Below are positions 1,843-20,389 of a DNA stretch of 24,000 nt, one piece after another. The stretch comes from an uncultured Candidatus Saccharibacteria bacterium (lineage in GTDB: Bacteria; Patescibacteriota; Minisyncoccia; Phycocordibacterales; UBA2100). Within the stretch, counting starts at the first letter, position 1, and every line of letters starts with the position of its first letter. The translations under genes were made by a program, and so were the position numbers. The stretch spans positions 20,607-44,606 of the forward strand of contig CAYIJV010000001.1 of assembly GCA_964363895.1 (NCBI GenBank). Reading direction: 5' to 3'. A model generated the notes under the pieces. That model searched no databases and was not told the origin of the DNA. It saw nothing but the letters and a program-made list of their open reading frames with translations.

Positions 1843-1863
1843 TCGTTCGGTCTAGACGAACGA
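1843..1863 (-). terminator. Possible terminator hairpin at the glyA 3' end
   Basis: TCGTTCG (1843-1849) pairs with CGAACGA (1857-1863). On the minus strand it is followed by AAATAATTTTG. It spans the glyA stop codon. Confidence 0.35.
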
Positions 1864-3117
1864 TTCAGGAACAGGAAACCTTGCGCACATCGTCCGTATT
1901 TCCTCCCGAACGGCGGAGAGCTTTTTTGTATCGCTCTTATTCTTCATTACATCTACCATGAGCTCGGCGACGCGCGCACTTTCTTTTTCGGTGAATTTCC
2001 GTGTCGTGATAGCTGGCGTGCCGAAGCGGATGCCAGAAGGGTCCATCGGCTTGCGTGTGTCATCGGCGATTGAGTTTTTGTTCAAAGTGATACCCGCATG
2101 GTCGAGCAGCGTTTCCGCCTCATGTCCGGAAATGCCAAGCGAGCCGAAAACATCGGCGAGGAGCAGGTGGTTGCTGGTGCCGCCAGTGAGCAGGCGGATA
2201 TTGTTTTCCAGGAACACTTTTTCCATTGCCTTTGCATTTTTCAGGATTTGATGCGCATAGGTTTTAAATGACGGCATGAGCGCCTCGCCGAACGCGACTG
2301 CTTTTGCGGCGATGTTGTTCATGTGTGGTCCTCCCTGAAGACCCGGGAAGACCATCTTATCTATCTTTTTGCCGACCTCCTCGCTTTCGCGAGTCAGAAT
2401 GAGGCCCCCGCGTGGACCGCGAAGGGTCTTGTGAGTGGTCGAGGTCATCACGTCGAACCCGAAATCAAATGGACTTTTCACCGCCTTACCTGCAATCAAT
2501 CCTGCGATATGTGCAATGTCCATGACAGCGTATGCACCAACTTCGCGAGCTATTTCGACGAATTTTGCATAATTCAATTCACGGGGATACGCGGAAAATC
2601 CTGCGAGCACGATCTTAGGCTTTTCCTTTTGCGCGACTGTACGCATCTCATCGTAATCGATCTCCCCTGTGTTCGGGTCTTTCATCTTATAGCGCACGAA
2701 GTTGAAGATCTTTGTGAGATAGGTGACAGGATGCCCGTGTGTGAGGTGGCCGCCATGCGAGAGATCCATTCCGAGGACCGTGTCGCCTGGCTCAAGAAGA
2801 GCGAAGTACATCGCGATATTTGCGTTTGCGCCACCGAGAGTCTGTACATTGGCATATTTGCAATTAAAAAGTTTCTTCGCGCGTTCGATTGCGAGTATTT
2901 CCACTGCGTCTGTATACGTCTGTCCACCGTAGTAGCGTTTTCCGGGATACCCTTCGGAATATTTGTTGGTCAGACATGAGCCATTAGCCTCACGTACGGC
3001 GCGAGATACATAATTTTCGGAGGGAATCAATTCGAGCCCTTCTGATTCGCGCTTCTCTTCGCCTTCGAGAGCGTCGAATATTTCTTGGTCTTGTTTTTGC
3101 ACATGTGAATAATCCAT
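1852..3117 (-). CDS. glyA: Serine hydroxymethyltransferase
   Basis: Full-length 421 aa with the SHMT hallmarks LELIPSENY, YSEGYPGKRYYGG and the PLP-lysine motif TSTTHKTLRGPRGG. Confidence 0.95.
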   Translation of the reverse strand: MDYSHVQKQDQEIFDALEGEEKRESEGLELIPSENYVSRAVREANGSCLTNKYSEGYPGKRYYGGQTYTDAVEILAIERAKKLFNCKYANVQTLGGANANIAMYFALLEPGDTVLGMDLSHGGHLTHGHPVTYLTKIFNFVRYKMKDPNTGEIDYDEMRTVAQKEKPKIVLAGFSAYPRELNYAKFVEIAREVGAYAVMDIAHIAGLIAGKAVKSPFDFGFDVMTSTTHKTLRGPRGGLILTRESEEVGKKIDKMVFPGLQGGPHMNNIAAKAVAFGEALMPSFKTYAHQILKNAKAMEKVFLENNIRLLTGGTSNHLLLADVFGSLGISGHEAETLLDHAGITLNKNSIADDTRKPMDPSGIRFGTPAITTRKFTEKESARVAELMVDVMKNKSDTKKLSAVREEIRTMCARFPVPESFV

Positions 3118-3169: not shown

Positions 3170-3787
3170 TTAGTTAGATAGTACCGATTGTACGGCATTC
3201 TCCACCTGCGTCCAGACCTCTACAAGCGGTTTATCTGCATCGATAATCATGGGCGTCCCAAATTCTGCAATGTGCTTTTTATATCCCTCGCGCACGCGAA
3301 TATGGAAATCGAGTTCCTCGTTGTCGAATCTAGTCGGCTCATCAGGGCGCGAGCGGGCACGCGCGATGCCGATCTCTGGCGTGACGTCGAGCAGTATACA
3401 CGCATCGGGTATATACCCCTTAAGCATAGAATCCGAAACTGCACGATAGAGTGGTAAGAGTTCGGGTCGTTGTCGTCCATAAATCTGGTAAGCGATGGAT
3501 GAAAGCGCAAAACGATTTGAAACGACGATCTTGCCCGAATCAAGCGCTGGTTTGATTATTTCCGCGATCATTTGTGCGCGTCCGGCAAGAAATAATAATA
3601 GTTCGCTACGCACATCAATGCCTTTTGTCTTGTCTGACATGAGGAGTTCGCGAATTTCCTCGCCAAGTCTCGTACCTCCGGGATCTTGGGTGTATACAAA
3701 ATCTGGATATGCTTTTTTGAGTCGCTCGACGATTGTCGTTTTACCCGACCCTTCGCCACCCTCGAATACAATGAATTTTCCGCGCAT
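3170..3787 (-). CDS. tmk: Thymidylate (dTMP) kinase
   Basis: P-loop FIVFEGGEGSGKTT, a DRF-like NRFALSSIAYQ motif, and a lid region RSRPDEPTRFD. The gene starts 4 nt after the upstream deaminase stop. Confidence 0.9.
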   Translation of the reverse strand: MRGKFIVFEGGEGSGKTTIVERLKKAYPDFVYTQDPGGTRLGEEIRELLMSDKTKGIDVRSELLLFLAGRAQMIAEIIKPALDSGKIVVSNRFALSSIAYQIYGRQRPELLPLYRAVSDSMLKGYIPDACILLDVTPEIGIARARSRPDEPTRFDNEELDFHIRVREGYKKHIAEFGTPMIIDADKPLVEVWTQVENAVQSVLSN

Positions 3788-3790
3788 GTT

Positions 3791-4288
3791 TTATTCTACA
3801 TCGGCAAACTGCCTGCCGATAACATTGCCATGGTGCGCTTTGTTGAAAAGTCTTTCACTGCCTTCAAGGAGGTAGACGTTTTCGATGCCTGACTCGATGA
3901 TCGCATTCCAACATGGCGCGCACGCCCACCAATGCCCCCAGAGATAGAGATCGGCACCCACAGTGTCGTGGCCGTTTTTCATTGCATCGGCAATTGCACG
4001 CGGCTCGCTATGGTTTTTTGGATGGCAACCTTCACACAATTCGTAGCCGTGTCCGGTCGGGATCCCGCGCTTCACGCGCTCGCAGCCGTGCTCGGTATGA
4101 TAATTGCTTCCGTTGGCCCCGCGCCCGATCACCTCGCCGCCTCTCACAACTACGGATCCTGTTTTGACCACATCATCGAGCGAATGGAGTTTCGCATATT
4201 CCCGCGCCTCTTGTATGAAAGGATTGTGCGCATCGACGTAGCGCATGATGCGGCCAGTCGGGATGTAAGGATAGTCAATAGACAACAT
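3791..4288 (-). CDS. Deoxycytidylate (dCMP) deaminase, CMP/dCMP deaminase zinc-binding family
   Basis: Zinc motifs HSE (NHSEPRAI) and CAPC (WACAPCWNAI), plus an extra CEGC/H cluster as in dCMP deaminases. VVRGGEVIGRGANG core. Confidence 0.8.
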   Translation of the reverse strand: MLSIDYPYIPTGRIMRYVDAHNPFIQEAREYAKLHSLDDVVKTGSVVVRGGEVIGRGANGSNYHTEHGCERVKRGIPTGHGYELCEGCHPKNHSEPRAIADAMKNGHDTVGADLYLWGHWWACAPCWNAIIESGIENVYLLEGSERLFNKAHHGNVIGRQFADVE

Positions 4289-4331
4289 AGCGCCAATGTA
4301 CCATGCCTTCGACTAGATTCTTTCTGATAGG

Positions 4332-4337
4332 TATAAT
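4332..4337 (+). promoter_or_regulatory. TATAAT -10 box 6 nt upstream of the thyA-family ATG (leaderless-type promoter)
   Basis: A consensus TATAAT at 4332-4337 with the ATG at 4344 and no SD between them. The 55-nt divergent intergenic region is shared with the dCMP deaminase operon. Confidence 0.4.
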
Positions 4338-4343
4338 CGCTCC

Positions 4344-5180
4344 ATGACCCGCTTTGACGAGATATATCAAGGATTGCTCGGACAGATCTTCGAGCGGGGT
4401 GTACGGGAGAAAAATGAGCGCACCGGTCATGAGGTCATGGCCATTCCGGGACTTCACTTCTCACTCGATGTGGAGAAAGAAGGTTTTCCGCTTCTTACAT
4501 TGCGCAAAATTCCGGTCAAAATGTTCGTAGCCGAGCAAGTGTGGTTTATTGCCGGAGTTAGAAAGCCTGCCGATTTTTTGCGCGACTACACAAAGATTTG
4601 GGACAGCTTCACGAACCCCGCCGATGTCGTCACCGTGGCGTATGGCTATCGGTGGCGGAAACATTTCGGGAGAGACCAGATCAAACTCCTCATAGATCTC
4701 TTGAAAAAAGAACCAAGTTCGCGGCATGGTGTTGTCGTTACATGGGACCCTGCTTCGGATGGTTTGGGTGTCACAAAAAAGAAGAACGTGCCGTGTCCGT
4801 ACACGTTTACCGTCAATATAATCGGAGGCAGATTGAATTTGCATAACGTTGTCCGTTCCAATGACATGGTCTTGGGTTTCCCGTCGGATGTCGCCGGATT
4901 CGCCTTGTTACAGACTATTCTGGCACAGAAGCTGAATGTCGGGGTGGGCGTGTACTCACATTCCATCTCGAATGCGCACATCTATGACAATCAATACGAT
5001 GCGGTGAAGGAACTACTACAGCGCGAGAATACTCATGTGCCTATACGCATAACACTCCCTAAGAGCTCTTTTGAAAGGGCGGAAAAAAAGGACCACAAAT
5101 TGGTCGACGAGATTGTTTCTCAATTTACGTTACAATACCAACCACAACCCGCAATTACCGGCCTCTCAATTGTCCTGTAG
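4344..5180 (+). CDS. thyA: Thymidylate synthase (ThyA) family protein, atypical: Asp at the Asn177-equivalent position
   Basis: Aligns without gaps to the ThyA core: ERTG, AEQVWF, YGYRWR, catalytic Cys in VPCPY (codon 4794-4796), RSNDMVLGFPSDVAGFALL, AHIYDNQ. Asp182 (GAT, 4887-4889) replaces the conserved Asn. Confidence 0.85.
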   Translation: MTRFDEIYQGLLGQIFERGVREKNERTGHEVMAIPGLHFSLDVEKEGFPLLTLRKIPVKMFVAEQVWFIAGVRKPADFLRDYTKIWDSFTNPADVVTVAYGYRWRKHFGRDQIKLLIDLLKKEPSSRHGVVVTWDPASDGLGVTKKKNVPCPYTFTVNIIGGRLNLHNVVRSNDMVLGFPSDVAGFALLQTILAQKLNVGVGVYSHSISNAHIYDNQYDAVKELLQRENTHVPIRITLPKSSFERAEKKDHKLVDEIVSQFTLQYQPQPAITGLSIVL

Positions 5181-5189
5181 AATATCGCC

Positions 5190-5825
5190 ATGGCAATTCT
5201 TACAAAGAAGGAAATACTCGATCGCGTAAAAAGCGGGAATATCGCGTTCTACCCAGGTCTCGACCGCTTCCAATTACAGATGCATGCTGTCGATCTTCGC
5301 CTTGGCTTTACTTTTCTCATTCCAAAGGTCTGGAAGATGACATCAAAGGGGCGACAGGCGCTCTCGATCGATCCCCTGAAGGATCATGGACCGGAGTATT
5401 TTGATGTTATTGAGCTTGAGCAAGGGCAGTGTTTTGAATTGTTGCCGCAGGAGTACGTGCTGGTCTCGACATTCGAGACGATCAAGGTGCCAAATGACTT
5501 GATGGCGGTCTTGTACCCGCGCTCATCGGTGAATCGTAAGGGGCTTTCCGTCGACCTGACAGGCATCATCGATTCCGGCTACGAGGGACCGCTCACGCTT
5601 CCTATACGCAACAACACGCGCTCGCAAACTATCCAGTTGCACCCGGGCGAAAGATTTTGTCAGATCGTCTTTGAGGAGCTGAAACACAAAATCGAACCGC
5701 AAAAAAGTCGCTGGCATCAGAAAGATGTGGTGGAGAAGGGGAAGAAGGAGAAATCAGCCGAAATGAAACTCGTGTTTAGCGGCGATCTCAAAAAATTAAA
5801 GTCTGATTTTTCGGCTCTCGAATAA
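5190..5825 (+). CDS. dcd: dCTP deaminase/dUTPase-superfamily protein (Dcd-like; deaminase Glu not conserved)
   Basis: Dcd-type N-terminus (ILTKKEILDRV...VDLRLG), PRSSVNRKGL, GIIDSGYEGPLTLPIRN. Pro138 (CCT, 5601-5603) occupies the column of the catalytic Glu of E. coli Dcd and M. jannaschii DCD-DUT. Lys-rich C-terminal tail. Confidence 0.65.
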   Translation: MAILTKKEILDRVKSGNIAFYPGLDRFQLQMHAVDLRLGFTFLIPKVWKMTSKGRQALSIDPLKDHGPEYFDVIELEQGQCFELLPQEYVLVSTFETIKVPNDLMAVLYPRSSVNRKGLSVDLTGIIDSGYEGPLTLPIRNNTRSQTIQLHPGERFCQIVFEELKHKIEPQKSRWHQKDVVEKGKKEKSAEMKLVFSGDLKKLKSDFSALE

Positions 5826-5827
5826 CC

Positions 5828-6346
5828 ATGGCCGCTCGAATCTGTGCCGTTGTTGCCATCGGGAAGAATAGAGAACTCGGCAAAGACGGAAAATTGCTCT
5901 GGCGCATTCCTGATGATCTAAGGCGCTTTAAACGATTAACTCTCGGATACCCGATAATTTTAGGCCGCAAGACATTTGAATCAATCGTCGAATATCTGGG
6001 TAAACCTCTGCCGGAGAGAACGAATATAGTGGTTTCTCGCAAAGGACCGTCCTTTGTAGATTCCCAAGGACGGTCCTTTGCAAACGTTGTTGTCGCCTCT
6101 TCGCTCGAAGAGGCAATCGCAAGCGCGAGGGAACTCAACTCCGAAGAAATTCACATTGGTGGCGGTGCTGAAATTTACAAACAAGCTCTATCATATATAG
6201 ACAAGCTGTATCTCACGCTTATAGACGATAAAAAGGATGCGGACACCTTCTTCCCGCCGTATGAAGATCAATTCACAAAGAAAGTATTTGAAGAATCGCA
6301 CGAATGGAATGGCATTAAATATCGGTGGGTGGATTTAGAGCGTTAG
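5828..6346 (+). CDS. folA: Dihydrofolate reductase
   Basis: VVAIGKNRELGKDGKLLWRIPDDLRRFKRLTLGYPIILGRKTFESI and IGGGAEIY motifs. The start lies 2 nt after the upstream stop. Confidence 0.9.
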   Translation: MAARICAVVAIGKNRELGKDGKLLWRIPDDLRRFKRLTLGYPIILGRKTFESIVEYLGKPLPERTNIVVSRKGPSFVDSQGRSFANVVVASSLEEAIASARELNSEEIHIGGGAEIYKQALSYIDKLYLTLIDDKKDADTFFPPYEDQFTKKVFEESHEWNGIKYRWVDLER

Positions 6347-7374
6347 TGCGACATGCTCTTCAGGACTTTGAGGTACAAATTCTCGACGATTTTTTGCTGT
6401 GCTTTGCCGGTTTTTACGTAGTGATCCAAGCCAGGCGCCGCATTGATCTCGATGACCCAATATTGGGCGGGCTTATTGGTGATACTTCCTTCTATCATAA
6501 GGTCAACGCCGCAAAGTCGCAGGCCCATATCTTTTGTCAGCTTGACAGCGATGTTCTTAAATTCCGGATGGATTTCTTTTGTCACATCGATCGAATCGCC
6601 GCCGGAGGATAGATTTGCGTTGTCTAAGAGATACACACGCTCTCCTCGAACGGGGACGGAGCGCATGTTCATTTTTTTGCGTTTCAACTTGTTGGCAATA
6701 CGCGGATCATCAATCTTTATTTGCGTGTCACGGCTCGAGGCAAGAAATTCGCGTGCCTTTTTTGTGAGTAGCTGTCGGACAGTTGAACGTCCATTGCCTG
6801 CGACATTTAATGGTATTCGCTCATACGCGGAAATCACCGCCTTATCCAAAACTACAATCCGATAATCTCTTCCGTGCACAGGCTTCTGAATCAAGGCGAT
6901 CTTATCGTTTCGAAATATATATTTCATCGCGCGCAAAAACTCTTGTTTGTTGTGTACGAGCGAGATGCCAACGCCCTGGCTTCCGCTATTTGGCTTCATA
7001 ATGACGGGGAAGCCGAGTTTTTTCGCATAGCGATATCCAGCATCTATGTTGCGATATGAACCGATCGTTTTACACCACTCGTCTGAAAAGAATGCTTTGC
7101 CGGGAATGGTCGGGTATCCCATGCGGCGCATGAAAAAGGTTGCATAGTCTTTGTCTTTCGAAATGTCCGCCGATCCGACAGGGTTGAGATCGACGGTGTT
7201 GTAACGGAAGTAGCGATGTATGCCGGCCTTACCCGCTTTTGCTGGGTAACGGATCTGGCCCGCAATCTGCCAATTCGGCTCCAGTGTTACTCGCGCACCA
7301 ATGCGGGTGGCGAGTCTTTTGAGCATTTTCGCAAGGACGAGGCGTTCGGGTTTTCTCTTCATGTGCGGTATCAT
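6343..7374 (-). CDS. ATP-grasp ligase related to the cyanophycin synthetase / GshF ATP-grasp domain (stand-alone)
   Basis: FPVIMKPNSGSQGVGISLV, DYRIVVLDKAVISAYERIPLNVAGNGRSTV, NLSSGGDSIDVTKEIHPEF and VIEINAAPGL resemble CphA G-domain strings (recalled). No Mur-ligase-like domain follows. An alternative start is at 7362. Confidence 0.7.
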   Translation of the reverse strand: MIPHMKRKPERLVLAKMLKRLATRIGARVTLEPNWQIAGQIRYPAKAGKAGIHRYFRYNTVDLNPVGSADISKDKDYATFFMRRMGYPTIPGKAFFSDEWCKTIGSYRNIDAGYRYAKKLGFPVIMKPNSGSQGVGISLVHNKQEFLRAMKYIFRNDKIALIQKPVHGRDYRIVVLDKAVISAYERIPLNVAGNGRSTVRQLLTKKAREFLASSRDTQIKIDDPRIANKLKRKKMNMRSVPVRGERVYLLDNANLSSGGDSIDVTKEIHPEFKNIAVKLTKDMGLRLCGVDLMIEGSITNKPAQYWVIEINAAPGLDHYVKTGKAQQKIVENLYLKVLKSMSH

Positions 7375-7431: not shown

Positions 7432-10419
7432 ATGGTAAATCGAATTGCAGTCTCCACAAAGATATCCGACGCGCGAGCGCAAAGTTATCTCCACACTTTG
7501 CAAACAAGGTTTCCTGAAAGCGGCTTGAAGGCCGCTTCTCTCGTACAGGTGTATACCGTTGATGCGAAACTTTCGGCCGCTGAACTAGATACTGCCGCGC
7601 AACGTCTCACGAATCAGATCACGGAAATGTACTCCACGGAAGATGTACCGACTCCGGTGTTGTACGCATACGCGATAGAAATCGGGTTTTTGCCCGGTGT
7701 AACCGATAATGTCGGAAAGACAGCGCGGCAAACGATCGAGGATTGTTTGGATCGCTCACTCAAAGAAGGTGAGGATGTTTATTCTTCAAAGACTCTTTTC
7801 CTCGATGGAGCAATTACCGCTCGCGATGTAGCAACAATGGCACATGAACTCCACAACCCGCTCATCGAGCGGGCTTCTGTCTTTTCTAAAGCGGAGAGTG
7901 GAGGAGATTTTCCGATCGTAGTTCCGAAAGTGTCTCTGATGAAAGTCGTCGGGACGGATGAAGTCGATCTCGGTGTAAGCGATGCGGAACTTCTAAAAAT
8001 TGGAAAAGAGGGAATTGCGGACAAATGCCTGCCTGCCGGTAGGCAGGGCACGCGCCGGGGTCCTCTCTCACTTTCTCTGCGCGCTCTCAAAATAATCCGT
8101 GGCCACTTCGAGAAAGTTGGTCGGAACCCTACAGACGTAGAATTGGAATCATTGGCACAGACGTGGTCTGAGCATTGCAAGCACACGATCTTTGCTGATC
8201 CGTTGGATGAGGTCAAAGAAGGGATCTATCGTCGTTACATCAAGGGGGCGACAAAAAGAATCCGAAAACAAAAGGGCAAGAAAGATTTCTGCGTTTCCGT
8301 ATTTAAAGATAATTCTGGCGCGATCGCATTCGATAAAGAATATCTCATTACGCATAAAGTGGAGACACATAATTCTCCATCGGCACTTGATCCGTTCGGA
8401 GGGTCAGTCACTGCGATCGTCGGGGTCAATCGGGATTGTCTGGGCTTTGGGCTTGGTGCGAAGCCGATAGCAAATACATACGGATTTTTCGTAGCAAGCC
8501 CAGAAGACCGGAGAGAATTCTTCCGTGATAAAAAGAAAAAGCAACAGCTCCTGCCCGCGCGAAGAATTCTTGAAGGTGTTATTCACGGCATCAACGCTGG
8601 CGGAAATGAAAGCGGTATCCCGACGTCCTTGGGATTTGTGGCGGTAGATCCGAGCTTCCGCGGGAAGCCGCTGGTCTTTGGCGGGACCGTCGGCCTCATT
8701 CCCCGTAGCGGAAGAAGTTCGCTACGGGGCAAGCCTCGCAATCTTCACGAGAAGTGTGCCGAGCCGGGAGATTACATCGTGATGATAGGCGGTCGTGTCG
8801 GACTCGACGGCATTCATGGTGCGACGTTCTCTTCCGAATCGCTTGCCTCGGGAAGCCCTGCGACAGCGGTGCAAATTGGCGATCCAATTACACAAAAGAA
8901 ACTCTCTGACGCGCTTATTCGCGAAGCGCGCGACAAGGGATTGTACTCGAGCATAACCGACAACGGCGCTGGCGGACTTTCGGGTTCGGTAGGGGAGATG
9001 GCAAAAGAGAGCGGAGGATGTGAAGTAGATTTGGATACAGTCCCGCTAAAATACCCGGGGCTCGCTCCGTGGCAGATTTGGCTTTCGGAATCGCAAGAGC
9101 GCATGACGTTGTCTGTGCCAAAAAAGAATTGGACAGCACTTAAGAAAATCTTTGACCGACATGATGTGGAGGCTACAAAGATCGGAACATTCACGAATTC
9201 AGGCAAATGTGTTGTTCGTGCAAAAGGGCATGTCGTGATGGACGTGGAGCTCGCATTTCTCCACGATGGTCGCCCAATCGAAAAACAAAAGACTAAAAAA
9301 GTTACCCATGTTTTTCCCGAAGTATCGAATCGGGCGCGAAATATAGAATTGGGCCAATTGATGCTTGATGTCTTGGCACGACCGAATGTCGGTTCGATCT
9401 CCTTCATTTCAGAGCAATATGATCATGAAGTTCAGGGGACATCTGTCACGAAACCGCTCCATGGTAGGGGGCGTGTAAACGCGGACTCTGCAGTTCTGCA
9501 GCCTGTACCCAGTTCTTCTCGCGGCATCGTTCTTTCATACGGGTATTGTCCGTGGTATTCGCAGATTGATACCTACGCAATGGCTGCTGCGTCCATCGAT
9601 ACTGCCGTTCGTAACGCGATTTGCGCAGGAGCTTCCCGCGATTATCTCGCTATTCTGGATAACTTTTGCTGGTCATCTTCGGAGAAGCAAGAGCGATTGT
9701 GGGAGCTGAAACAGGCAGCAAAAGCGTGCTACGACATCGCGACTGCATACGGCACGCCGTTTATTTCGGGCAAGGATAGTATGTTCAATGATTTCCGCGG
9801 ATACACAGAAAAAGGCGAATCTGTGCATATAGCGGCTCTCCCCACGCTTCTCGTTTCCGCAATCGGTGTTATTCCAGATGTTTCAAAAGCAATAACTCTT
9901 GATTTCAAGCGCGCGGGCGATTTTGTGTATCTTATCGGAGAAACACATGACGAGCTTGGCGGATCGGAATACTACGCTCTCGCTAATCAAATCGGTAAAG
10001 AAGCTCCTGTCGTTAATGCAAAAAAGAACGCAAAGGCATACGATGCACTCGCTAAAACTATTCAAGACGAGCTCGTTGTTTCCGCTATTGGAGTAGGAAG
10101 GGGGGGTCTTGCCGTGGCACTCGCGAAATCGGCAATCGCGGGCCAGCTCGGCGCGAGTTTGGACTTACGAAGTCTGAAGGGGGGCGCGAAGGAGGCTGAT
10201 GCAATACTGTTTTCTGAAAGTCAGGGACGCATGCTGGTCTCGGTGAGGCGATCGGCTCAGAAGTACTTTGAGAAAACGTTTAAAGGTATTCCTCTCGCGA
10301 ACATTGGAGAAGTGACGCAATCGGCATCAGTATCGATTTTGCTGCCGAACACAAAGCTCGAAATCTCCCTCTCCGCGCTTACAGATTCGTATCGGTCGTT
10401 CTTTAAAAACTGGTCATAA
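7432..10419 (+). CDS. purL: Phosphoribosylformylglycinamidine synthase subunit PurL with fused tandem PurS-like N-terminal region
   Basis: PurL core motifs AQTWSEHCKH, VETHNSPSALDPFGG, GRVGLDGIHGATFSS, DNGAGGLSGSVGEMA, SESQERM. At 995 aa it is longer than the roughly 740-aa small PurL. The first ~165 aa contain two PurS-like repeats ending in RLTNQITEMY and ELHNPLIERA. Confidence 0.9.
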   Translation: MVNRIAVSTKISDARAQSYLHTLQTRFPESGLKAASLVQVYTVDAKLSAAELDTAAQRLTNQITEMYSTEDVPTPVLYAYAIEIGFLPGVTDNVGKTARQTIEDCLDRSLKEGEDVYSSKTLFLDGAITARDVATMAHELHNPLIERASVFSKAESGGDFPIVVPKVSLMKVVGTDEVDLGVSDAELLKIGKEGIADKCLPAGRQGTRRGPLSLSLRALKIIRGHFEKVGRNPTDVELESLAQTWSEHCKHTIFADPLDEVKEGIYRRYIKGATKRIRKQKGKKDFCVSVFKDNSGAIAFDKEYLITHKVETHNSPSALDPFGGSVTAIVGVNRDCLGFGLGAKPIANTYGFFVASPEDRREFFRDKKKKQQLLPARRILEGVIHGINAGGNESGIPTSLGFVAVDPSFRGKPLVFGGTVGLIPRSGRSSLRGKPRNLHEKCAEPGDYIVMIGGRVGLDGIHGATFSSESLASGSPATAVQIGDPITQKKLSDALIREARDKGLYSSITDNGAGGLSGSVGEMAKESGGCEVDLDTVPLKYPGLAPWQIWLSESQERMTLSVPKKNWTALKKIFDRHDVEATKIGTFTNSGKCVVRAKGHVVMDVELAFLHDGRPIEKQKTKKVTHVFPEVSNRARNIELGQLMLDVLARPNVGSISFISEQYDHEVQGTSVTKPLHGRGRVNADSAVLQPVPSSSRGIVLSYGYCPWYSQIDTYAMAAASIDTAVRNAICAGASRDYLAILDNFCWSSSEKQERLWELKQAAKACYDIATAYGTPFISGKDSMFNDFRGYTEKGESVHIAALPTLLVSAIGVIPDVSKAITLDFKRAGDFVYLIGETHDELGGSEYYALANQIGKEAPVVNAKKNAKAYDALAKTIQDELVVSAIGVGRGGLAVALAKSAIAGQLGASLDLRSLKGGAKEADAILFSESQGRMLVSVRRSAQKYFEKTFKGIPLANIGEVTQSASVSILLPNTKLEISLSALTDSYRSFFKNWS
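8027..8050. repeat. GC-rich hairpin element copy A (GCCTGCCTGC-cggt-AGGCAGGGCA), in frame within purL
   Basis: A 7-bp stem, 8028-8034 pairing with 8041-8047. Both 10-mers recur in the same order at 14256-14277 in purB. Encodes CLPAGRQG. Confidence 0.6.
8701..8729. repeat. Perfect 10-bp-stem hairpin (CCCCGTAGCG-n9-CGCTACGGGG), in frame within purL
   Basis: Arms 8701-8710 and 8720-8729 are exact reverse complements. It encodes PRSGRSSLRG in a loop that is about 9-10 aa longer than in B. subtilis PurL (recalled). Confidence 0.55.
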
Positions 10420-10423
10420 CAAT

Positions 10424-10741
10424 ATGGAAAATCTCGAACGATCCAAGAATATCTCAACTCGCGTTGCAGAGGCTCGAGGAAGGCTCTTAAAAGATCTTGA
10501 TGAAAGAAATATGGATGGCGCCTGGATGGAGGCTATGGAAGCAATTGCCGTCTACGGGATGAACATGGAGAAAAAGTATCAGAACGCAAAGAAATTGTTG
10601 GCGTATCACGTGCTTATCGGGAGCACAGTACCTGATGGCGCCGCCGGTATGACTGATGAGGACTTTGAAGGCGATGATTCAATGCTTGTGTTCCTGAAGA
10701 ATCTTCGATCCCGGCTTCTTGGATCGCCGGATACTCTATGA
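10424..10741 (+). CDS. Hypothetical protein (105 aa), translationally coupled between purL and purQ
   Basis: The ORF starts 4 nt after the purL stop and its stop overlaps the purQ ATG (ATGA at 10738-10741). Acidic and helical-looking. No PurS motif recognised. Confidence 0.5.
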   Translation: MENLERSKNISTRVAEARGRLLKDLDERNMDGAWMEAMEAIAVYGMNMEKKYQNAKKLLAYHVLIGSTVPDGAAGMTDEDFEGDDSMLVFLKNLRSRLLGSPDTL

Positions 10742-11514
10742 AAAGGCCTCATGTCATAATTTTCTCCGGCCATGGTCTCAATACCGAGGATGAGACCAAG
10801 ACAGCGTTTGAGTCGGTCGGCGCAACAGCCGATATTATTCACATCAACGACATAATCGCCAGACCGGCGATTCTTGATACGGCGCAGATCATTGTATTTC
10901 CGGGCGGATTTTCGTACGGGGATGACACCGGTTCGGGGAAGGCATATGGCAATCGAGTAAAACAGCATCTTGGTGGTGCAATAGAGAAATTCCTTGCGCG
11001 CGACACGCTGATGGTAGGTATCTGTAATGGTTTTCAAATCATTACGAGCGCGGGAATTTTGCCGGGTGCTCTCATCGCAAATGATTCGGCCCGCTATTCA
11101 TGTAGATGGGTGGATCTGGAGGTAAAGAACGACAGCCCGTGGCTCAAGGGAATAAAGACGATGTCTGTGCCCATTGCACACGGGGAGGGGAAATATTATG
11201 CGCCACATGAGACACTCGAAGTTCTAAAAAAAGAGAACGCGATTGCTCTGCGGTATGTCGAAGGTGAGACCTCGAAACACTTCGATATGCCGGCAAATCC
11301 AAATGGTTCGCTCCAAAATATTGCGGGCATTACCGGATACAACGGACGTGTATTGGGGCTTATGCCTCATCCTGAACGCGCCGTACGCTTCATTCAATTA
11401 CCTCACTGGACCCACCAGCGTGAGGAGTATGTGCGGCAAGGCCGGGCCTTGCCGTCAGAAGGGTCGGGGCTTCAGTTATTCAAAAATGCGGTACACTACT
11501 TTCATGATAAATAA
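10738..11514 (+). CDS. purQ: Phosphoribosylformylglycinamidine synthase, glutaminase subunit PurQ
   Basis: Class-I amidotransferase triad context: GICNGFQ (Cys nucleophile), MPHPER. Confidence 0.9.
   Translation: MKRPHVIIFSGHGLNTEDETKTAFESVGATADIIHINDIIARPAILDTAQIIVFPGGFSYGDDTGSGKAYGNRVKQHLGGAIEKFLARDTLMVGICNGFQIITSAGILPGALIANDSARYSCRWVDLEVKNDSPWLKGIKTMSVPIAHGEGKYYAPHETLEVLKKENAIALRYVEGETSKHFDMPANPNGSLQNIAGITGYNGRVLGLMPHPERAVRFIQLPHWTHQREEYVRQGRALPSEGSGLQLFKNAVHYFHDK
11435..11453. repeat. 19-nt perfect palindrome GGCAAGGCC-g-GGCCTTGCC inside purQ
   Basis: Exact 9-bp arms. It encodes RQGRALP near the PurQ C-terminus. Confidence 0.5.
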
Positions 11515-12034
11515 AACATTTGTCGGTATTCTCATGGGCTCGGATTCGGATTTACCGATTATGCAGGATGCGGCCAAAGTGCTGGAGGAACTTGGGATAG
11601 GTTGCGAAGTCCATACACTCTCTGCTCACCGTACGCCTGAAGCCGTTGTTGAGTATGTGAAAAAGGGCGAGTCGAGTGGTTACAAAATGTTCATCTGCGG
11701 CGCCGGAGGCGCCGCGCACCTTGCAGGAGTCGTCGCGGCGCATACCTCGCTTCCTGTTATTGGTGTTCCTATTATGAACAAAACCACGCAGGGAGTTGAC
11801 GCCCTATTTTCGACCGTACAAATGCCGCCAGGCATTCCCGTAGCGACCGTTGCGATTAATGGCGCAAAAAATGCCGGCATTCTTGCCGCGCAAATTATTG
11901 GATCAGGGGACGCGGATATTAGGGCTAAAGTTTCTGCATATAAGGCAAAAATGTCCGCGGATGTGCTAATGAAAGACGAGAAACTTCAGGAAAAAGGCTT
12001 TAAGAAATATCTCGAAGAGAAAGGTTTGATATGA
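11504..12034 (+). CDS. purE: N5-carboxyaminoimidazole ribonucleotide mutase / AIR carboxylase PurE
   Basis: [17 protein letters not shown] and [14 protein letters not shown] motifs. I chose the ATG at 11504 (an 11-nt overlap with purQ) rather than the listed 11243, which runs through purQ in another frame. Confidence 0.9.
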
Positions 12035-13071
12035 GTAAAAGACTTTCTTATAAACGATCCGGCGTAGACATAGATAATGCCAACGAGACTAAGCGCCAGA
12101 TGGGGAAGTTTTTAAAAAACAGCAACGTGCGCGTACTTAACAAAATAGGAGCCTTTGCCACTTTGTTTGATGGCGCTTTCCCAGAATACAAACACCCCGT
12201 ACTTGTTCTTAAGACAGAAGAGCCGGGAACGAAACAGAAGCTTGCGCTTCAGCACAATAGCGTTGAAACGATTTGCTACGATCTCGTGAACCATCTTATC
12301 AACGACGCCATCGTAATGGGCGCAAAGCCGCTCTCTGTGCAAGATTGTATCGTGTGCGGAAAAATGGAAAAAGAAACCATTCTGAAGATCGTCTCTGCAC
12401 TTTCTTTAGCGTGCAAGGAAAACGACTGCATATTAACGGGAGGCGAGACTTCCGAGCAGCCGGGAGTCGTTCCTGCGGGGACATATATTCTGACCGCGAG
12501 CATTGTGGGGGTGGTGGATAAGGAACATATTATTGATGGATCGAAAATAAAATCCGGAGACACCGTTCTTGCTCTCGCATCGAGCGGAGTACATACCAAC
12601 GGGTTTTCGTTAATTCGTAAAATAATGGAGGAGTCACCCGGTATCCTGAAAGAGGAGATTGGCGGACAGCCGTTCATTACAAGCATACTTACGCCCCATC
12701 GCTGTTATTACAATTGCTTGAGAGATCTATTCGGAAAAGAAGAACTAGCGGGCTTAGCCCATATTACTGGAGGAGGAATACAGGAAAATCTAAATCGAAT
12801 ATTACCCGATACTCTGAATGCCGAAATACATCTGGAAAAAATAAGGATCCTGCCAATTTTCAAAACACTCAAACAATTCGGCGCTCTTGAAGATGCCGAC
12901 ATGTTACGGACCTTTAATATGGGAGTGGGTATGACAGCCGTTATAAAACAGGCATTTACGGAAGAGGCTATTGCGCACTTCAAACAGTTCGACATCGCCG
13001 CCTACCCGATAGGGGTTATCACAAAAGGCAATAAGCAGGTAGATTTTATCGGGGAGCTACAATGGGAATAG
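12031..13071 (+). CDS. purM: Phosphoribosylformylglycinamidine cyclo-ligase (AIR synthetase)
   Basis: YKRSGVDID, DLVNHLINDAIVMGAKPL, GGETSEQPG and SSGVHTNGFSLIRK motifs. A 4-nt ATGA overlap with purE. Confidence 0.9.
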   Translation: MSKRLSYKRSGVDIDNANETKRQMGKFLKNSNVRVLNKIGAFATLFDGAFPEYKHPVLVLKTEEPGTKQKLALQHNSVETICYDLVNHLINDAIVMGAKPLSVQDCIVCGKMEKETILKIVSALSLACKENDCILTGGETSEQPGVVPAGTYILTASIVGVVDKEHIIDGSKIKSGDTVLALASSGVHTNGFSLIRKIMEESPGILKEEIGGQPFITSILTPHRCYYNCLRDLFGKEELAGLAHITGGGIQENLNRILPDTLNAEIHLEKIRILPIFKTLKQFGALEDADMLRTFNMGVGMTAVIKQAFTEEAIAHFKQFDIAAYPIGVITKGNKQVDFIGELQWE

Positions 13072-13074
13072 ATT

Positions 13075-14007
13075 ATGGATATATTGAAAGAAACTGATTT
13101 CAATTTTCTCGGCCCTAAGAAAACGGGCAAGGTGCGGGATATCTATACGCAAAAAGATCGGCTCATTCTCGTTACGACCGACCGGCACTCTTCTTTCGAC
13201 CGCATCATTGCGCATATTCCATGGAAAGGGCAGGTGTTGAATCAGATCAGTGCGTTTTGGTTTGAACAGACCAAAGACATTGTTCCGAATCATGTGCTTG
13301 CGGTACCTGATCCGAATGTGACGGTGGGCAAAAAGTGCACTATGGTGCCTGTCGAGGCGGTAGTGCGAGGATATCTTACCGGAGTGACAGACACAGCTAT
13401 CTGGACACGGTATTCTGCAGGGAAACGGGATTTTGGTGATGTTGTTCTATCTGATGGCATGAAGAAGAATCAGAAATTACCACACCCTGTTTTTGATCCC
13501 ACGACAAAAGAAGACACGCACGATCGTTCTCTTACGCCGGAACAAATGATTTCCGAAGGATTTATTACCAGTGAATTATTCCAAGAGGTAAAAAAGACCG
13601 CTCTGGCGATCTTCGTACGTGGGCAGGAACTTGCCGCGAAAAGCGGACTCATTTTGGTGGATACAAAATATGAGTTTGGTACAGACGAAAATGGCAGACT
13701 TGTCTTGATCGATGAGATACACACTCCGGATTCATCACGATTCTGGCAGATTGATTCGTACGAGACGCGGTTTGCGGAGGGAGAGGAGCCGCAATATTTC
13801 GATAAGGAATTTCTCCGGCTGTGGTTTAAGGAAAACTGTGATCCATATAAAGATGCGACTCTTCCCGAAGCACCTCCAGAGCTTGTGGAGGAGCTCTCGC
13901 GTCGGTATATTCAGATGTATGAGCAAATCACCGGAAAGAAATTTATACCCGGCGAGACCCCAGTCATTCCGCGCATCGAGCGTAATTTAAGATTATATGC
14001 CGTTTGA
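13075..14007 (+). CDS. purC: SAICAR synthetase (long, Ade1-like form)
   Basis: GKVRDIY, TDRHSSFD, LILVDTKYEFG and IDEIHTPDSSRFW motifs. Confidence 0.9.
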   Translation: MDILKETDFNFLGPKKTGKVRDIYTQKDRLILVTTDRHSSFDRIIAHIPWKGQVLNQISAFWFEQTKDIVPNHVLAVPDPNVTVGKKCTMVPVEAVVRGYLTGVTDTAIWTRYSAGKRDFGDVVLSDGMKKNQKLPHPVFDPTTKEDTHDRSLTPEQMISEGFITSELFQEVKKTALAIFVRGQELAAKSGLILVDTKYEFGTDENGRLVLIDEIHTPDSSRFWQIDSYETRFAEGEEPQYFDKEFLRLWFKENCDPYKDATLPEAPPELVEELSRRYIQMYEQITGKKFIPGETPVIPRIERNLRLYAV

Positions 14008-15421
14008 CCCGCTCACCGCAATAAGTTCTGTTGATGGACGATATCGAGACGTTTCCGCGGCGCTTCTCGAATATTTCAGCGAATACGCACTGATGCGCAA
14101 GCGCATCACCGTTGAGTGCAAATACCTTATAGCACTCTCGGAATGTCCGGAAAGCGGCATTCGTGCTCTGACTACCGAGGAGAAGAAATCTTTGCGTGAA
14201 CTTTCGAAGATCTCGATAGAGGAAGCGGGAATTATCAAGAAAATCGAGAAGGAAGGCCTGCCTGCGCAGGCAGGGCAGGCAGGGTATGAAGGAATTCCAG
14301 CGACGAATCACGATGTAAAGGCGATTGAATACTTTATAAAAGGAAAAATGGCCGGAACTTCACTTAAAGATGTTGCCGAATGGGTGCATTTTGCACTTAC
14401 GTCGGAGGATGTAAACAGCATCGCGCACGGATTCACCTTACGTTCGTCACTTGAGCATATCATCCTACCGGCTATCGAAGAGATCCGAGCACACCTTGAC
14501 GCTCTCGCTAAAGAACATGCAAGTACTCCCATGCTCGCGCGCACGCATGGACAACCGGCATCTCCTACGACCTTTGGCAAGGAGATGCGGGTGTTTGAAG
14601 CGCGCATTGCGCGGCAGTTGGAACAACTCAAAGCTACCAGCATTCTTGTGAAGTTTGCGGGCGCTACGGGGAATTACAACGCGCATGTCGCTGCGGCCCC
14701 AAAAGTAGATTGGCCCGCTTTTGCAAAGAAATTCATAAATAGTTTGAATGATGGCCATGCCGTCCCGATAGAATTGAATGAAGTCACAACACAGATCGAG
14801 CCGCATGATACGTATGCGGAACTCTTCGACAATCTTCGCCGCATCAACACTATTCTCATCGATTTCTCGGAAGATATGTGGCGCTACATAAGCGACGGAT
14901 GGGTAACGCAAAAACCGAAAGAGGGAGAGGTGGGGTCTTCGGCAATGCCGCACAAGGTGAACCCGATTGATTTTGAAAACGCCGAAGGGAATTTTGGAGT
15001 TGCAAACGCACTCTTCGAACACTTTTCGCGCAAGCTTCCAATATCACGCCTCCAGCGCGACCTCTCGGATTCGACGGTTGAGCGCACGTTCGGTACCGCT
15101 TTCGCTCATTCACTCATTGCGTACAAATCACTTTTACGCGGTTTAGGCAAGATAAACGTAAATGCGGGAGCGATGCTCGCGGAACTCCAAGCGCATCCCG
15201 AGGTACTCGCCGAAGCAATTCAGACTGTTCTACGACGCGAGGGCATTTCGGTGCCGTACGAACAGTTAAAAACGCTTACGCGAGGGAAGCAAGTGACGCT
15301 AGAAGATTTCGCAATATTTATAGACACTCTTGCAGTGGATGAAAAAGTAAAAAAACGCCTTAAGGCACTTCGGCCGGAGAATTATATCGGCCTTGCAAGA
15401 GAGATCGCCCGCAATGGTTGA
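13997..15421 (+). CDS. purB: Adenylosuccinate lyase (E. coli-type long form)
   Basis: SSVDGRYRD, TNHDVKAIEYF, HFALTSEDVN, RTHGQPASPTTFGKE, and the signature GSSAMPHKVNPIDFEN. An 11-nt overlap with purC. Confidence 0.92.
   Translation: MPFDPLTAISSVDGRYRDVSAALLEYFSEYALMRKRITVECKYLIALSECPESGIRALTTEEKKSLRELSKISIEEAGIIKKIEKEGLPAQAGQAGYEGIPATNHDVKAIEYFIKGKMAGTSLKDVAEWVHFALTSEDVNSIAHGFTLRSSLEHIILPAIEEIRAHLDALAKEHASTPMLARTHGQPASPTTFGKEMRVFEARIARQLEQLKATSILVKFAGATGNYNAHVAAAPKVDWPAFAKKFINSLNDGHAVPIELNEVTTQIEPHDTYAELFDNLRRINTILIDFSEDMWRYISDGWVTQKPKEGEVGSSAMPHKVNPIDFENAEGNFGVANALFEHFSRKLPISRLQRDLSDSTVERTFGTAFAHSLIAYKSLLRGLGKINVNAGAMLAELQAHPEVLAEAIQTVLRREGISVPYEQLKTLTRGKQVTLEDFAIFIDTLAVDEKVKKRLKALRPENYIGLAREIARNG
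14256..14284. repeat. GC-rich hairpin element copy B (GCCTGCCTGC-gc-AGGCAGGGCA + GGCAGGG), in frame within purB
   Basis: Contains the 18-nt perfect palindrome CCTGCCTGCGCAGGCAGG (14257-14274). It shares both 10-mers with the purL copy and encodes GLPAQAGQAG. Confidence 0.6.
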
Positions 15422-19690: not shown

Positions 19691-20389
19691 ATGAATCTTG
19701 ATGAACAAAAGATTTCCGACAATGCTTTTCAGTATGTAAAAAGTCATTCTGACGAGATAATTCGGAAATTTGCGGGTCAATCTGTTCTGGTAGCGACACC
19801 CGTCTCACTTTTCATGGCCGGTTCTCCTGGCGCTGGTAAGACGGAAGTGTCGAAAGGCTTAATGCGTCAATTTGACACGGTTCCGGTTCGCATCGACGCA
19901 GACGAGATACGCGCACTTTGCCTAGGATATACGGGTGCCAACGCGCATCTATTTCAAAAGGCTGCGACCAAGGGAGTGCATATACTATATGACTACGCAC
20001 TGCATGAAAAACTTCACCTCATTCTAGATGGAACGTTTGCGTACAGCGATTCGATTAAGAATATTCAACGATCGTTAGATTATGCAAGAAAAGCTGAATT
20101 ATGGTTTGTCTATCAGGACCCCATAAGGGCGTGGGAATTCACAAAGGCTCGTGAGGCACTTGAAGCACGCCATGTTTCAAAAGACGTGTTCATCAGGACA
20201 TTTCTGATGGCAAAAGAAAATACTAAACAAGCAAAAATGCACTTCCGTACTTCATTAACCCTCAATCTGCTTATCAAGAATATGGATAATACCGACGGGA
20301 GGATGCAACTTAATATTCAACACGACCAACTTGACCCATATATAGGACACAGCTATACTGCAGAAGATCTCGACGGGATACTCCTATGA
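19691..20389 (+). CDS. Zeta-toxin-family P-loop kinase
   Basis: Walker A MAGSPGAGKTEVSK, RIDADEIR and LILDGTF match Zeta_toxin/AAA-kinase family motifs. 232 aa. Confidence 0.7.
   Translation: MNLDEQKISDNAFQYVKSHSDEIIRKFAGQSVLVATPVSLFMAGSPGAGKTEVSKGLMRQFDTVPVRIDADEIRALCLGYTGANAHLFQKAATKGVHILYDYALHEKLHLILDGTFAYSDSIKNIQRSLDYARKAELWFVYQDPIRAWEFTKAREALEARHVSKDVFIRTFLMAKENTKQAKMHFRTSLTLNLLIKNMDNTDGRMQLNIQHDQLDPYIGHSYTAEDLDGILL

Follow-up and report, generated by a model that had tools for sequence, protein, structure and literature searches.

To our knowledge, only two routes to thymidylate exist in cells, through ThyA or through ThyX, with dUMP as the methylated substrate in each. The ThyA fold also serves enzymes with cytosine nucleotide substrates: T4 gp42 dCMP hydroxymethylase, the MilA/BcmA CMP hydroxymethylases, the 5-hydroxy-dCMP synthases of the RB69 gp48 type and the dCMP methylases of XP12-type phages. 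All of these carry Asp at the column where E. coli ThyA has the pyrimidine-specifying Asn177. Asn229Asp mutants of thymidylate synthase retain some dUMP activity. PDB entry 1NJC is the L. casei N229D enzyme bound to dCMP, and references in PMC8670742 bear out the statement of a preliminary description of the present locus that exchanging this Asn for Asp turns ThyA into a dCMP methylase. In phages, residues 177 and 147 are those most associated with cytosine-modified DNA, 147 being the second most discriminating (PMC8670742). The XP12 enzyme and five of seven in-cis metavirome D177 enzymes of the XP12 type make 5-methyl-dC in vivo; the deaminases beside these enzymes are 5mC-selective and have been proposed as suppliers of thymidine nucleotides (bioRxiv 10.1101/2024.12.05.627091). 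A dCMP deaminase of the ordinary type also takes 5-methyl-dCMP (PMC12088426). In Xanthomonas phage XP12, Pseudomonas phage PaMx74 and Rhodobacter phage RcSimone-Hastad the gene order is pyrophosphatase (HAD or MazG), thymidylate synthase (TS) homologue, deaminase and dihydrofolate reductase (DHFR).

The window (the whole 24,000-nucleotide stretch that was analysed) contains a ThyA-fold gene at 4344..5180 on the + strand, which is predicted from its Pfam match, structural model, residue signature and clade to encode a dCMP C5-methyltransferase of the XP12 type. The 278-aa product matched PF00303 (Thymidylat_synt) over residues 7-255 at 3.7e-53, and its AlphaFold2 model (pLDDT 93.5, pTM 0.92) aligned with ThyA structures in Foldseek at TM 0.81-0.85, the top matches being methylating TS enzymes. 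Cys146, Glu58, Tyr94, Arg21/Arg126/Arg166, Ser167, Asp169, His207 and Tyr209 (E. coli numbering) are all kept. These catalytic and phosphate-binding residues were invariant in 81 orthologues, apart from Tyr209, which is Trp in five; because they are invariant while the codons vary synonymously, the enzyme is under selection. As had been described, this is the sole ThyA-family gene in the window, which gave one TS match and zero ThyX-like matches, and neither the window nor ~1 Mb of related flanking sequence yielded a second TS or a ThyX.

The motifs ERTG, AEQVWF, YGYRWR, VPCPY and RSNDMVLGFPSD were each recovered from the translation, and the catalytic Cys had been placed correctly at 4794-4796 (TGT, Cys151). 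The codons TGT CCG (4794..4799, +) encode Cys151 and Pro152, at the E. coli Cys146 and His147 columns, and CGG CAT (4722..4727, +) encodes Arg127 and His128, at the Arg126 and Arg127 columns. The reported changes of His147 to Pro and Arg127 to His were thus read directly from codons 4797-4799 and 4725-4727 (CAT). Pro occupied the 147 column in 80 of the 81 orthologues, and the Arg127 column held His in 74 and Gln in 7. At the Leu143 column the codon AAC (4785..4787, +) gives Asn148; Asn is found here in XP12-type methylases and Asp or Glu in hydroxymethylases (PMC13326640). The preliminary description had the protein aligning to E. coli ThyA without gaps across the catalytic core. This holds inside the motifs but not over the whole core, where a 5-residue deletion follows YGYRWR and a 3-4-residue insertion ('DGLG') precedes the catalytic Cys; both indels are common to the XP12 clade.

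The residue on which the earlier argument turned is encoded by GAT at 4887..4889 (+), read as Asp182 at the Asn177 column. That placement was upheld by five independent HMMER pairwise alignments to solved ThyA chains, which agreed without gaps and set GFPSDVAGFALL on 'G(V/L)PFNIASYALL', and by MAFFT alignments with E. coli ThyA (reference sequence identical to PDB 1AOB), which placed Asp182 identically. Asp was present at this column in 81/81 orthologues (codons GAT in 44 and GAC in 37) and in 120/120 close database homologues; Asp182 is neither chance nor a sequence error. Among 138 cluster representatives at 50% identity, 121 had Asp and 16 had Asn at 177. Asn177 went with His147 (a Cys being the single exception), and Asp177 mostly with Pro, Val, Leu or Ile.

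At residues 143/147/169/177 the query reads N/P/D/D, as do the XP12, PaMx74 and RcSimone-Hastad enzymes, compared with L/H/D/N in ThyA and D/T/D/D in T4 dCMP hydroxymethylase; the XP12 sequence itself reads 'KNVPCP...LPYDVMG'. The phylogeny proposed as a check grouped the query with the XP12-type dCMP methylases, apart from the Asn-type ThyA enzymes. In this neighbor-joining distance tree, drawn without bootstrap, the common-ancestor clade of the query and XP12 comprised 120 leaves, all with Asp177 and including the PaMx74 and RcSimone-Hastad enzymes, and the Asn177 enzymes formed a separate clade of 19 leaves. Identity to the XP12-type phage enzymes was 33-37% over the full length (~35% to the tested XP12 enzyme), and these dCMP methylases are the true nearest known relatives. 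ThyA of E. coli and L. casei (EC 2.1.1.45) has in common with the query the fold, the catalytic and phosphate residues, the C-terminal tail and the coupling to DHFR and serine hydroxymethyltransferase (SHMT). It differs in carrying Asn177, His147, Leu143 and Arg127 where the query has Asp, Pro, Asn and His, in its identity of 29%, and in its separate clade.

The gene is chromosomal in a member of the Patescibacteria (Kaiserbacteria-like), and relatives were detected in at least 219 species genomes by a genome scan built on 10 sequences. The host lineage is one of tiny groundwater bacteria. Around the TS gene lies a conserved set composed of glyA, tmk, a dCMP-deaminase-family gene, a Dcd-like gene and folA. 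In a census of 80 Patescibacteria species genomes, the deaminase gene was adjacent to the TS gene in 78 and the Dcd-like gene downstream in 74, with SHMT present in 61, DHFR in 52 and Tmk in 31. The reverse census, taken from the Dcd-like gene, found the TS gene at 51/52 loci and the deaminase gene at 50/52. Synteny of the module with glyA, tmk, folA and a pur operon extended over dozens of species-level genomes in several Patescibacteria classes.

The glyA gene (1852..3117, - strand; PF00464, 5e-147) encodes SHMT, the source of methylene-tetrahydrofolate (CH2-THF). The folA gene for DHFR (5828..6346, +; PF00186, 9.3e-43) lay within 8 kb of the TS gene in the 52 genomes counted above. The product of tmk (3170..3787, -) scored 148.6 bits against TIGR00041 (cut-off 83.25), matched E. 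coli Tmk (4TMK) at 1e-34 and keeps the LFxAxR base-binding motif; it is a standard dTMP kinase, which fits dTMP as the end product of the module.

The Dcd-like gene (5190..5825, +; 211 aa; PF22769, 2.4e-34) is a candidate dCTP pyrophosphatase that would release dCMP. It resembles Dcd and the bifunctional Dcd-dUTPases in its TIGR02274 score (110.6 bits), in its RSS..R and IDxG(Y/F/W)xG motifs and in having Dcd among PDB entries as its best matches. Compared with Dcd, however, its C-terminal arm is swapped for a Lys/Glu-rich tail, its motif 3 is dUTPase-like (IIDSGYEG), and the column of the catalytic Glu138 of E. coli Dcd (reference checked against 1XS1) holds Pro138 (codon 5601-5603). Pro stood at this column in 73/73 orthologues and in 78/80 metagenome copies. 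Archaeal-virus and rudivirus Dcd homologues retain the Glu. Because Glu138 is replaced by Pro, the known mechanism of dCTP deamination is closed to this protein. When the Dcd-like alignment was used as a search profile, every match was an almost identical Patescibacteria protein annotated as dCTP deaminase; a profile scan of viral contigs was empty, and viral relatives surfaced only at two TS-centred loci (L088 and L092). The AlphaFold2 model of this protein (22 close homologues aligned) had a pLDDT of 40 and was unusable.

The remaining partner (3791..4288, -; 165 aa; PF00383, 1.9e-11) is transcribed divergently from the TS gene and is the candidate deaminase for conversion of 5-methyl-dCMP to dTMP. 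The best PDB matches of its profile were dCMP deaminases, namely 4p9c (1.6e-9), 2hvv (7.5e-9), 1vq2 and 2w4l. The zinc ligands H93-x-E95 and C123-x-x-C126 (PCxxC) and a second His/Cys cluster are invariant, and the allosteric motif G(Y/W)N(A/G) here reads GANG. No match to this protein came up in a tblastn search of 50,697 phage genomes; the protein is therefore not close to the XP12 deaminase, and 5mC selectivity could not be read from its sequence. The activity of 5mC deaminases is described as polyphyletic in the deaminase preprint, which contains no structural explanation of 5mC selectivity.

The window and the XP12-type phages thus have side by side a pyrophosphatase (a predicted role in the window), a TS homologue of the same fold, signature, indels and all-Asp clade, a deaminase of the CDA family and DHFR. 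They differ in several ways. The XP12-type modules belong to lytic phages, whereas the module in the window is chromosomal and syntenic across a bacterial radiation. The pyrophosphatase position is filled by MazG or HAD in the phages and, as we read it, by the Glu-less Dcd-like protein in the window; the deaminase of the window is of a different, distant subfamily and divergently transcribed; and the set in the window also includes tmk and glyA. The likely output is dTMP in the window and 5mC-substituted DNA in the phages. Related arrangements were seen on other contigs. On two phage-like contigs (L088 and L092) all three genes have homologues, the Pro-type Dcd-like gene included, and D177 TS domains occur fused to a deaminase (P0138) and to a PRA-PH/MazG-like domain (P0182). 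The nearest TS relatives outside Patescibacteria lie on viral contigs, at 47-52% identity. Some phage D177 TS genes adjoin canonical dUTPases (L091, L093).

The reading that we favor is that the TS homologue is probably a folate-dependent C5-methyltransferase of the XP12 type acting on dCMP rather than dUMP, at the center of a module for dTMP. The cytosine-nucleotide substrate suggested in the preliminary description, predicted from signature and homology, is supported by all the comparative evidence gathered. We infer as follows what each enzyme consumes and produces, in which order the steps run and whether a mono- or a triphosphate is deaminated. By homology to ThyA, Cys151 would attack C6 of the pyrimidine, the methylene group of CH2-THF would move to C5, and hydride transfer from the cofactor would yield 5-methyl-dCMP and dihydrofolate (DHF). 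Asp182, in place of the Asn that reads uracil, would read N3/N4 of cytosine, and Pro152 would remove the His that touches uracil O4 via water. In the route as a whole, the Glu-less Dcd-like protein would convert dCTP to dCMP, the TS homologue would methylate dCMP with CH2-THF from SHMT and with DHF recycled by DHFR, the adjacent deaminase would convert 5-methyl-dCMP to dTMP, and Tmk would phosphorylate dTMP to dTDP. The usual three chemical steps would be reordered, and no uracil deoxynucleotide would arise. The order may differ from this proposal, since the only purified 5mC-selective phage deaminase requires triphosphates (bioRxiv 10.1101/2024.12.05.627091).

The fold, catalytic residues, signature, clade, module conservation, loss of the Dcd Glu, fusions and phage parallels are computational observations. 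The main competing reading, a textbook pathway, would make the enzyme an ordinary dUMP thymidylate synthase despite Asp182 (with a protonated Asp, for example), the deaminase a source of dUMP from dCMP and the Dcd-like protein a dUTPase on a Dcd scaffold that converts dUTP to dUMP, with ThyA, DHFR, SHMT and Tmk acting as usual. Family-level names fit every gene in this way, the TS score exceeded the cut-off of the NCBIfam thymidylate synthase equivalog TIGR03284 (129.6 versus 108.35), and both the databases and a paper on Patescibacteria (PMC12455944) call the gene ThyA. Its housekeeping surroundings, its standing as the only TS seen, the dUTPase-like IIDSGYEG and the canonical dUTPases beside some phage D177 TS genes agree with such a pathway as well. 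We nevertheless regard it as unlikely, because the characterized natural Asp177 enzymes (T4 dCMP hydroxymethylase, MilA, XP12 and the RB69 type) all use cytosine nucleotides, none being known to act on dUMP, and because the change of Asn to Asp by itself makes ThyA a dCMP methylase. All four signature residues, both indels and membership of the clade are shared with the tested XP12 enzyme, and His147, with its water-mediated contact to uracil O4, is lost too. The score also fell widely short of the five PRK01827-type ThyA equivalog cut-offs (NF002497/6/5/9/8), at 147 bits versus 327 for example.

If the enzyme does methylate dCMP, the product could also or mainly be phosphorylated and enter DNA, as in XP12-type phages, so that 5mC replaces C in the chromosome and the deaminase diverts part of it to thymine nucleotides. 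The gene set is functionally that of phages with 5mC for C, homologous three-gene modules lie on phage-like contigs, and such phages exclude C with a dCTP-destroying enzyme. This outcome has a slim chance in our estimate: no 5-methyl-dCMP kinase is evident, the linked kinase being a standard Tmk with the thymine-binding Phe/Arg motif; the deaminase profile is nearest to monophosphate dCMP deaminases; and a cell, unlike a lytic phage, faces deamination of 5mC to T genome-wide. Base modification itself cannot be read from sequence. The preliminary description had left hydroxymethylation beside methylation, and a dCMP hydroxymethylase or other C5 modifier resembling T4 gp42, MilA or the RB69 5-hydroxy-dCMP synthase would agree with Asp177 and with the RSNDxxxGFxxD string, which is present in T4 gp42 also. 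The T4 string given there was accurate, the T4 gp42 sequence containing RSNDVVFGFRND matching T4 records at 100%. The relationship evidence, however, points to the XP12 type, and with 26% identity the likeness to T4 is therefore at the motif level only. T4 gp42 (246 aa) has Asp143, Thr147 and Lys at Arg21 and lacks the C-terminal tail, and its chemistry adds water rather than hydride, so that no DHF is formed. Hydroxymethylases of the T4 and MilA types carry Asp or Glu at 143, and 5-hydroxy-dCMP synthases Asn at 169 (PMC13326640); the query has Asn and Asp, its Asp174 at the 169 column being invariant in orthologues, whereas the RB69 type has Glu143 and Asn169. The ribose preference of MilA requires Ala at Ser167 and Lys at Arg126 (PMC5175136), but the query has Ser172 and Arg127 at these columns, as deoxyribose-type enzymes do. 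Its C-terminal tail YQPQPAITGLSIVL aligns with E. coli YDPHPGIKAPVAI, with YxPxPxI..(I/L) kept as in ThyA. The linkage to folA and glyA implies folate oxidation, that is, production of DHF, the Foldseek matches named above were to methylating enzymes, and no glycosyltransferase or other downstream modification gene was found near the TS gene. Asn143, the retained tail and the folA/glyA linkage pick methyl over hydroxymethyl as the predicted product, and hydroxymethylation or a related modification is very improbable. Hardly credible, finally, is a prophage or a recently transferred phage cassette outside host metabolism. The viral position of the nearest non-Patescibacteria relatives and the frequent mobility of TS genes (an HNH-TS fusion, for instance) would suit it. 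The synteny, however, is constant over several classes and dozens of species-level genomes, protein identities (67-85%) track host divergence, and the window contained no phage structural or integrase genes and no tRNA.

The dCMP-methylase reading, if true, would mean that a major bacterial radiation methylates dCMP and deaminates it afterwards, a route so far proposed only for phages with 5mC for C; no description of such a module or of a dCMP-methylase route in cells was found in the literature. Uracil would be gone from DNA precursor metabolism as dUMP and dUTP, which would bear on how tiny genomes dispense with some uracil-sanitizing functions. The names 'thymidylate synthase' and 'dCTP deaminase' would be wrong for thousands of database entries. 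For biotechnology, the module would offer dCMP methylases and 5mC deaminases of cellular origin together with a new pyrophosphatase derived from Dcd, and it would connect Patescibacteria with their phages at the level of nucleotide metabolism. It is a long shot that a whole Patescibacteria branch (Kaiser-, Adler-, Nomura- and Taylorbacteria with their relatives) lacks dUMP-dependent thymidylate synthesis and makes all of its thymine via 5-methyl-dCMP. The strongest form of that proposal adds nucleotide-level 5mC in the chromosome, as in XP12-like phages, and would, if true, describe the first cell with pre-replicative, genome-wide base substitution.

The deaminase and TS genes diverge from a 55-bp intergenic region that contains a promoter-like site, TCGACT-17-TATAAT (4309..4337, +), which matches the consensus at only 10/12 positions, such sites being no commoner in the region than in shuffles. 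The deaminase subfamily is not exclusive to D177 TS contexts: a 44%-identical deaminase is encoded at a viral locus (L175) with no TS within 5 kb.

The only thymidylate synthase (TS) gene in the window (4344..5180, + strand) encodes a 278-aa protein that matched the Pfam family Thymidylat_synt (3.7e-53), and its top solved relatives were ThyA enzymes (e.g. 6AUJ at 1e-31). A confident AlphaFold2 model (pLDDT 93.5, pTM 0.92) superposed on ThyA structures with TM 0.81-0.85. HMMER placed GFPSDVAGFALL without gaps on G(V/L)PFNIASYALL in five pairwise comparisons with solved chains, so Asp182 (GAT, 4887-4889) was assigned to the column of E. coli Asn177. MAFFT alignments with E. coli ThyA (sequence identical to PDB 1AOB) and T4 gp42 dCMP hydroxymethylase (identical to T4 records) gave the same placement. 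The preliminary description had put Asp at this column, Pro at His147 and His at Arg127, and the alignments concurred, with Pro152 and His128 at the latter two. Its ungapped alignment to E. coli ThyA was sound around the Asp182 motif but failed over the core, where five residues are deleted after YGYRWR and DGLG is inserted before the catalytic Cys. Cys146 corresponds to Cys151 and Leu143 to Asn148, while Arg21, Glu58, Tyr94, Arg126, Arg166, Ser167, Asp169, His207 and Tyr209 (E. coli positions) are unchanged. The ThyA C-terminal tail is kept (YQPQPAITGLSIVL vs YDPHPGIKAPVAI), whereas T4 gp42 lacks it.

Among phages, the query was nearest to the Pseudomonas PaMx74 group and to Xanthomonas phage XP12 and its kin, with full-length identities of 33-37%; in these phages cytosine is replaced by 5-methylcytosine. 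At positions 143/147/169/177 the query reads N/P/D/D, as do XP12, PaMx74 and RcSimone-Hastad; E. coli ThyA reads L/H/D/N and the T4 enzyme D/T/D/D. In a neighbor-joining tree, the query and XP12 fell inside a 120-leaf clade with Asp in every leaf, and the Asn enzymes formed a distinct 19-leaf clade. Residues 177 and 147 are the two most strongly associated with cytosine-modified phage DNA (PMC8670742), and the XP12 enzyme and 5/7 metavirome Asp177 enzymes made 5-methyl-dC in vivo (bioRxiv 10.1101/2024.12.05.627091). Hydroxymethylation or another chemistry is unlikely: residue 143 is acidic in hydroxymethylases and bulky hydrophobic in methylating ThyA, and 5-hydroxy-dCMP synthases are marked by Asn at 169 (PMC13326640). 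The query also carries the deoxyribose-type pair Ser167 and Arg126, and the ribose preference of MilA requires Ala167 and Lys126 (PMC5175136). Taken together, the residue pattern and signature, phage kinship, published data, tree and tail point to dCMP as the substrate and a methyl product, and we consider it highly probable that the TS is a dCMP methylase. The cytosine nucleotide proposed as substrate in the preliminary description thus fits both the XP12-like signature and the all-Asp clade, with methylation favored over the hydroxymethylation it had also allowed.

Asp occupied the 177 column in all 120 close database homologues and in 81/81 genome-derived orthologues (codons GAT 44, GAC 37). 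The remaining catalytic residues were likewise fixed across the 81 orthologues with synonymous codon variation, which argues for a working TS that selection maintains in its Asp form. Among representatives of 50%-identity clusters, a full HMMER search retrieved 138 long relatives, 121 with Asp and 16 with Asn at this column. All but one of the Asn-type representatives also had His147; the partner of Asp177 was mostly Pro, Val, Leu or Ile. On one Kaiserbacteria contig (L047, 4688-5564) the TS was broken into two tblastn pieces by a frameshift or assembly error, and a second contig of that assembly (L014) held an intact copy.

The window is cellular; among its housekeeping genes are glycolytic ones, a purine operon and those for UppS and an ABC transporter, and it contains no tRNA or phage genes. 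Neither a second TS nor a ThyX-like gene was found in the window or in about 1 Mb of flanking sequence from related loci. The identical TS protein was present on Hainich groundwater contigs, and homologues were labelled Kaiserbacteria, Paceibacterota or Parcubacteria. Around the TS lie glyA (SHMT, 1852-3117, −), tmk (3170-3787, −), a dCMP-deaminase-family gene (3791-4288, −), a Dcd-like gene (5190-5825, +) and folA (DHFR, 5828-6346, +). TS relatives were found in at least 219 genomes when one genome per GTDB species was scanned, and the best 80 were Patescibacteria without exception, including a complete 859-kb Kaiserbacteria chromosome. In these 80, the deaminase gene was directly upstream of and divergent from the TS in 78 and the Dcd-like gene directly downstream in 74; SHMT, DHFR and Tmk were around the TS in 61, 52 and 31, respectively. 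Starting instead from the Dcd-like gene on metagenome contigs, the TS was found in 51 and the deaminase in 50 of the 52 loci with sufficient upstream sequence; a single locus (L169) had the Dcd-like gene elsewhere. A prophage origin of the module is contradicted by synteny over many species.

No other gene of the module is as well conserved as the Dcd-like gene, which reaches 94% identity. Its product scored as a dCTP deaminase (TIGR02274), the database name of its subfamily throughout. At the column of catalytic Glu138 of E. coli Dcd (sequence verified against 1XS1), which is the conserved Glu of the B. halodurans and M. tuberculosis enzymes, it has Pro, as did 73/73 orthologues and 78/80 metagenome copies. 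Glu is kept in archaeal-virus Dcd homologues and a rudivirus 'putative dUTPase'. Pro-type proteins also share a dUTPase-like IIDSGYEG motif and a Lys/Glu-rich tail in place of the Dcd/dUTPase C-terminal arm, and by these features are a distinct subfamily; members are encoded at 5190-5825 in the window, 11335-11973 of L088 and 8485-8964 of L092. Because Glu138 is replaced by Pro, the protein would be unable to deaminate dCTP by the known mechanism, which leaves nucleotide pyrophosphatase activity as the simplest candidate function.

The deaminase keeps the zinc ligands HxE and CxxC, has a second His/Cys cluster, and was nearest by profile to the solved dCMP deaminases 4p9c, 2hvv, 1vq2 and 2w4l. 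A tblastn search of 50,697 phage genomes found no close phage relative. A conventional dCMP deaminase accepts 5-methyl-dCMP, and the allosteric G(Y/W)N(A/G) motif of these enzymes binds dCTP and dTTP (PMC12088426). Residues 57-60 at this motif are GANG, so regulation by dCTP/dTTP may be lost or altered. On two viral contigs (L175, 3013-5453, and L176), a 44%-identical deaminase relative was beside a SAM synthetase and an N6/N4 DNA methylase, with no TS within 5 kb.

In the pathway we propose, the Dcd-like pyrophosphatase would hydrolyze dCTP to dCMP, the TS would convert dCMP to 5-methyl-dCMP and DHF, with SHMT and DHFR closing the folate cycle, and the deaminase would convert 5-methyl-dCMP to dTMP for phosphorylation to dTDP by Tmk, a dTMP kinase of the standard type in which the base-binding Phe/Arg motif is present. 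The order would be hydrolyze, methylate, deaminate, with chemistry equal to the Dcd/Dut/ThyA route and no uracil deoxynucleotide. All module genes also fit the textbook dUMP pathway by name, so an Asp-tolerant dUMP synthase is conceivable, though we regard it as rather improbable; a dUMP-making deaminase would be harmful beside a dUMP-blind TS, so a deaminase role downstream of the TS is the coherent reading. Incorporation of 5-methylcytosine into the chromosome, as a further fate of the product, would be compatible with the sequence but appears improbable. We judge the whole methylate-then-deaminate pathway somewhat likely as drawn. A phage deaminase has been proposed to draw thymine nucleotides from the 5-methylcytosine pool, citing old XP12 labelling data, and the sole purified phage 5mC deaminase works on triphosphates (bioRxiv 10.1101/2024.12.05.627091), so the order of steps may differ.

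XP12, PaMx74 and RcSimone-Hastad each have adjacent genes for a HAD or MazG-type pyrophosphatase, an Asp-type TS, a dCMP-deaminase-family protein and DHFR. Natural fusions in the Asp clade (database proteins P0138, P0182 and P0143) joined a deaminase domain to TS (P0138), a PRA-PH/MazG-like domain to TS (P0182) and, further, an HNH endonuclease to TS. The P0138 gene lies on a phage-like contig and adjoins a Dcd-like gene whose product is 42% identical to that of the window and likewise has Pro. The IMG/VR contig L092 carries homologues of the TS, the deaminase and a Pro-type Dcd-like gene, and the TS of L091, a clear phage, is 52% identical to the query. The enzyme type is already known from phages; what differs from the phage case is its conservation across a bacterial radiation as part of a chromosomal module that includes a Glu-less Dcd-derived partner. 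This module was not described in the searchable literature, where the Patescibacteria TS gene is handled as an ordinary thyA. Viral contig L093 (4628-6819) encodes consecutively a dUTPase, a dCMP deaminase, a P-loop dNMP-kinase-like protein and an Asp-type TS, the order expected of a phage that would build 5mC into its DNA.

Between folA and purL lies an ATP-grasp ligase gene (6343-7374, −), in an equivalent position in 17/80 related genomes. Its top matches were the ligase halves of cyanophycin synthetase and GshAB, with weaker matches to the RimK, MptN and CofF glutamate ligases; the product may attach glutamate to folate or to some other cofactor. Patescibacteria are usually described as biosynthesis-poor; the window carries an almost complete operon for de novo purine synthesis (purL, purS, purQ, purE, purM, purC, purB; 7432-15421, +). 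A Zeta-toxin-family kinase gene (PF06414, 3e-28) is at 19691-20389 (+).
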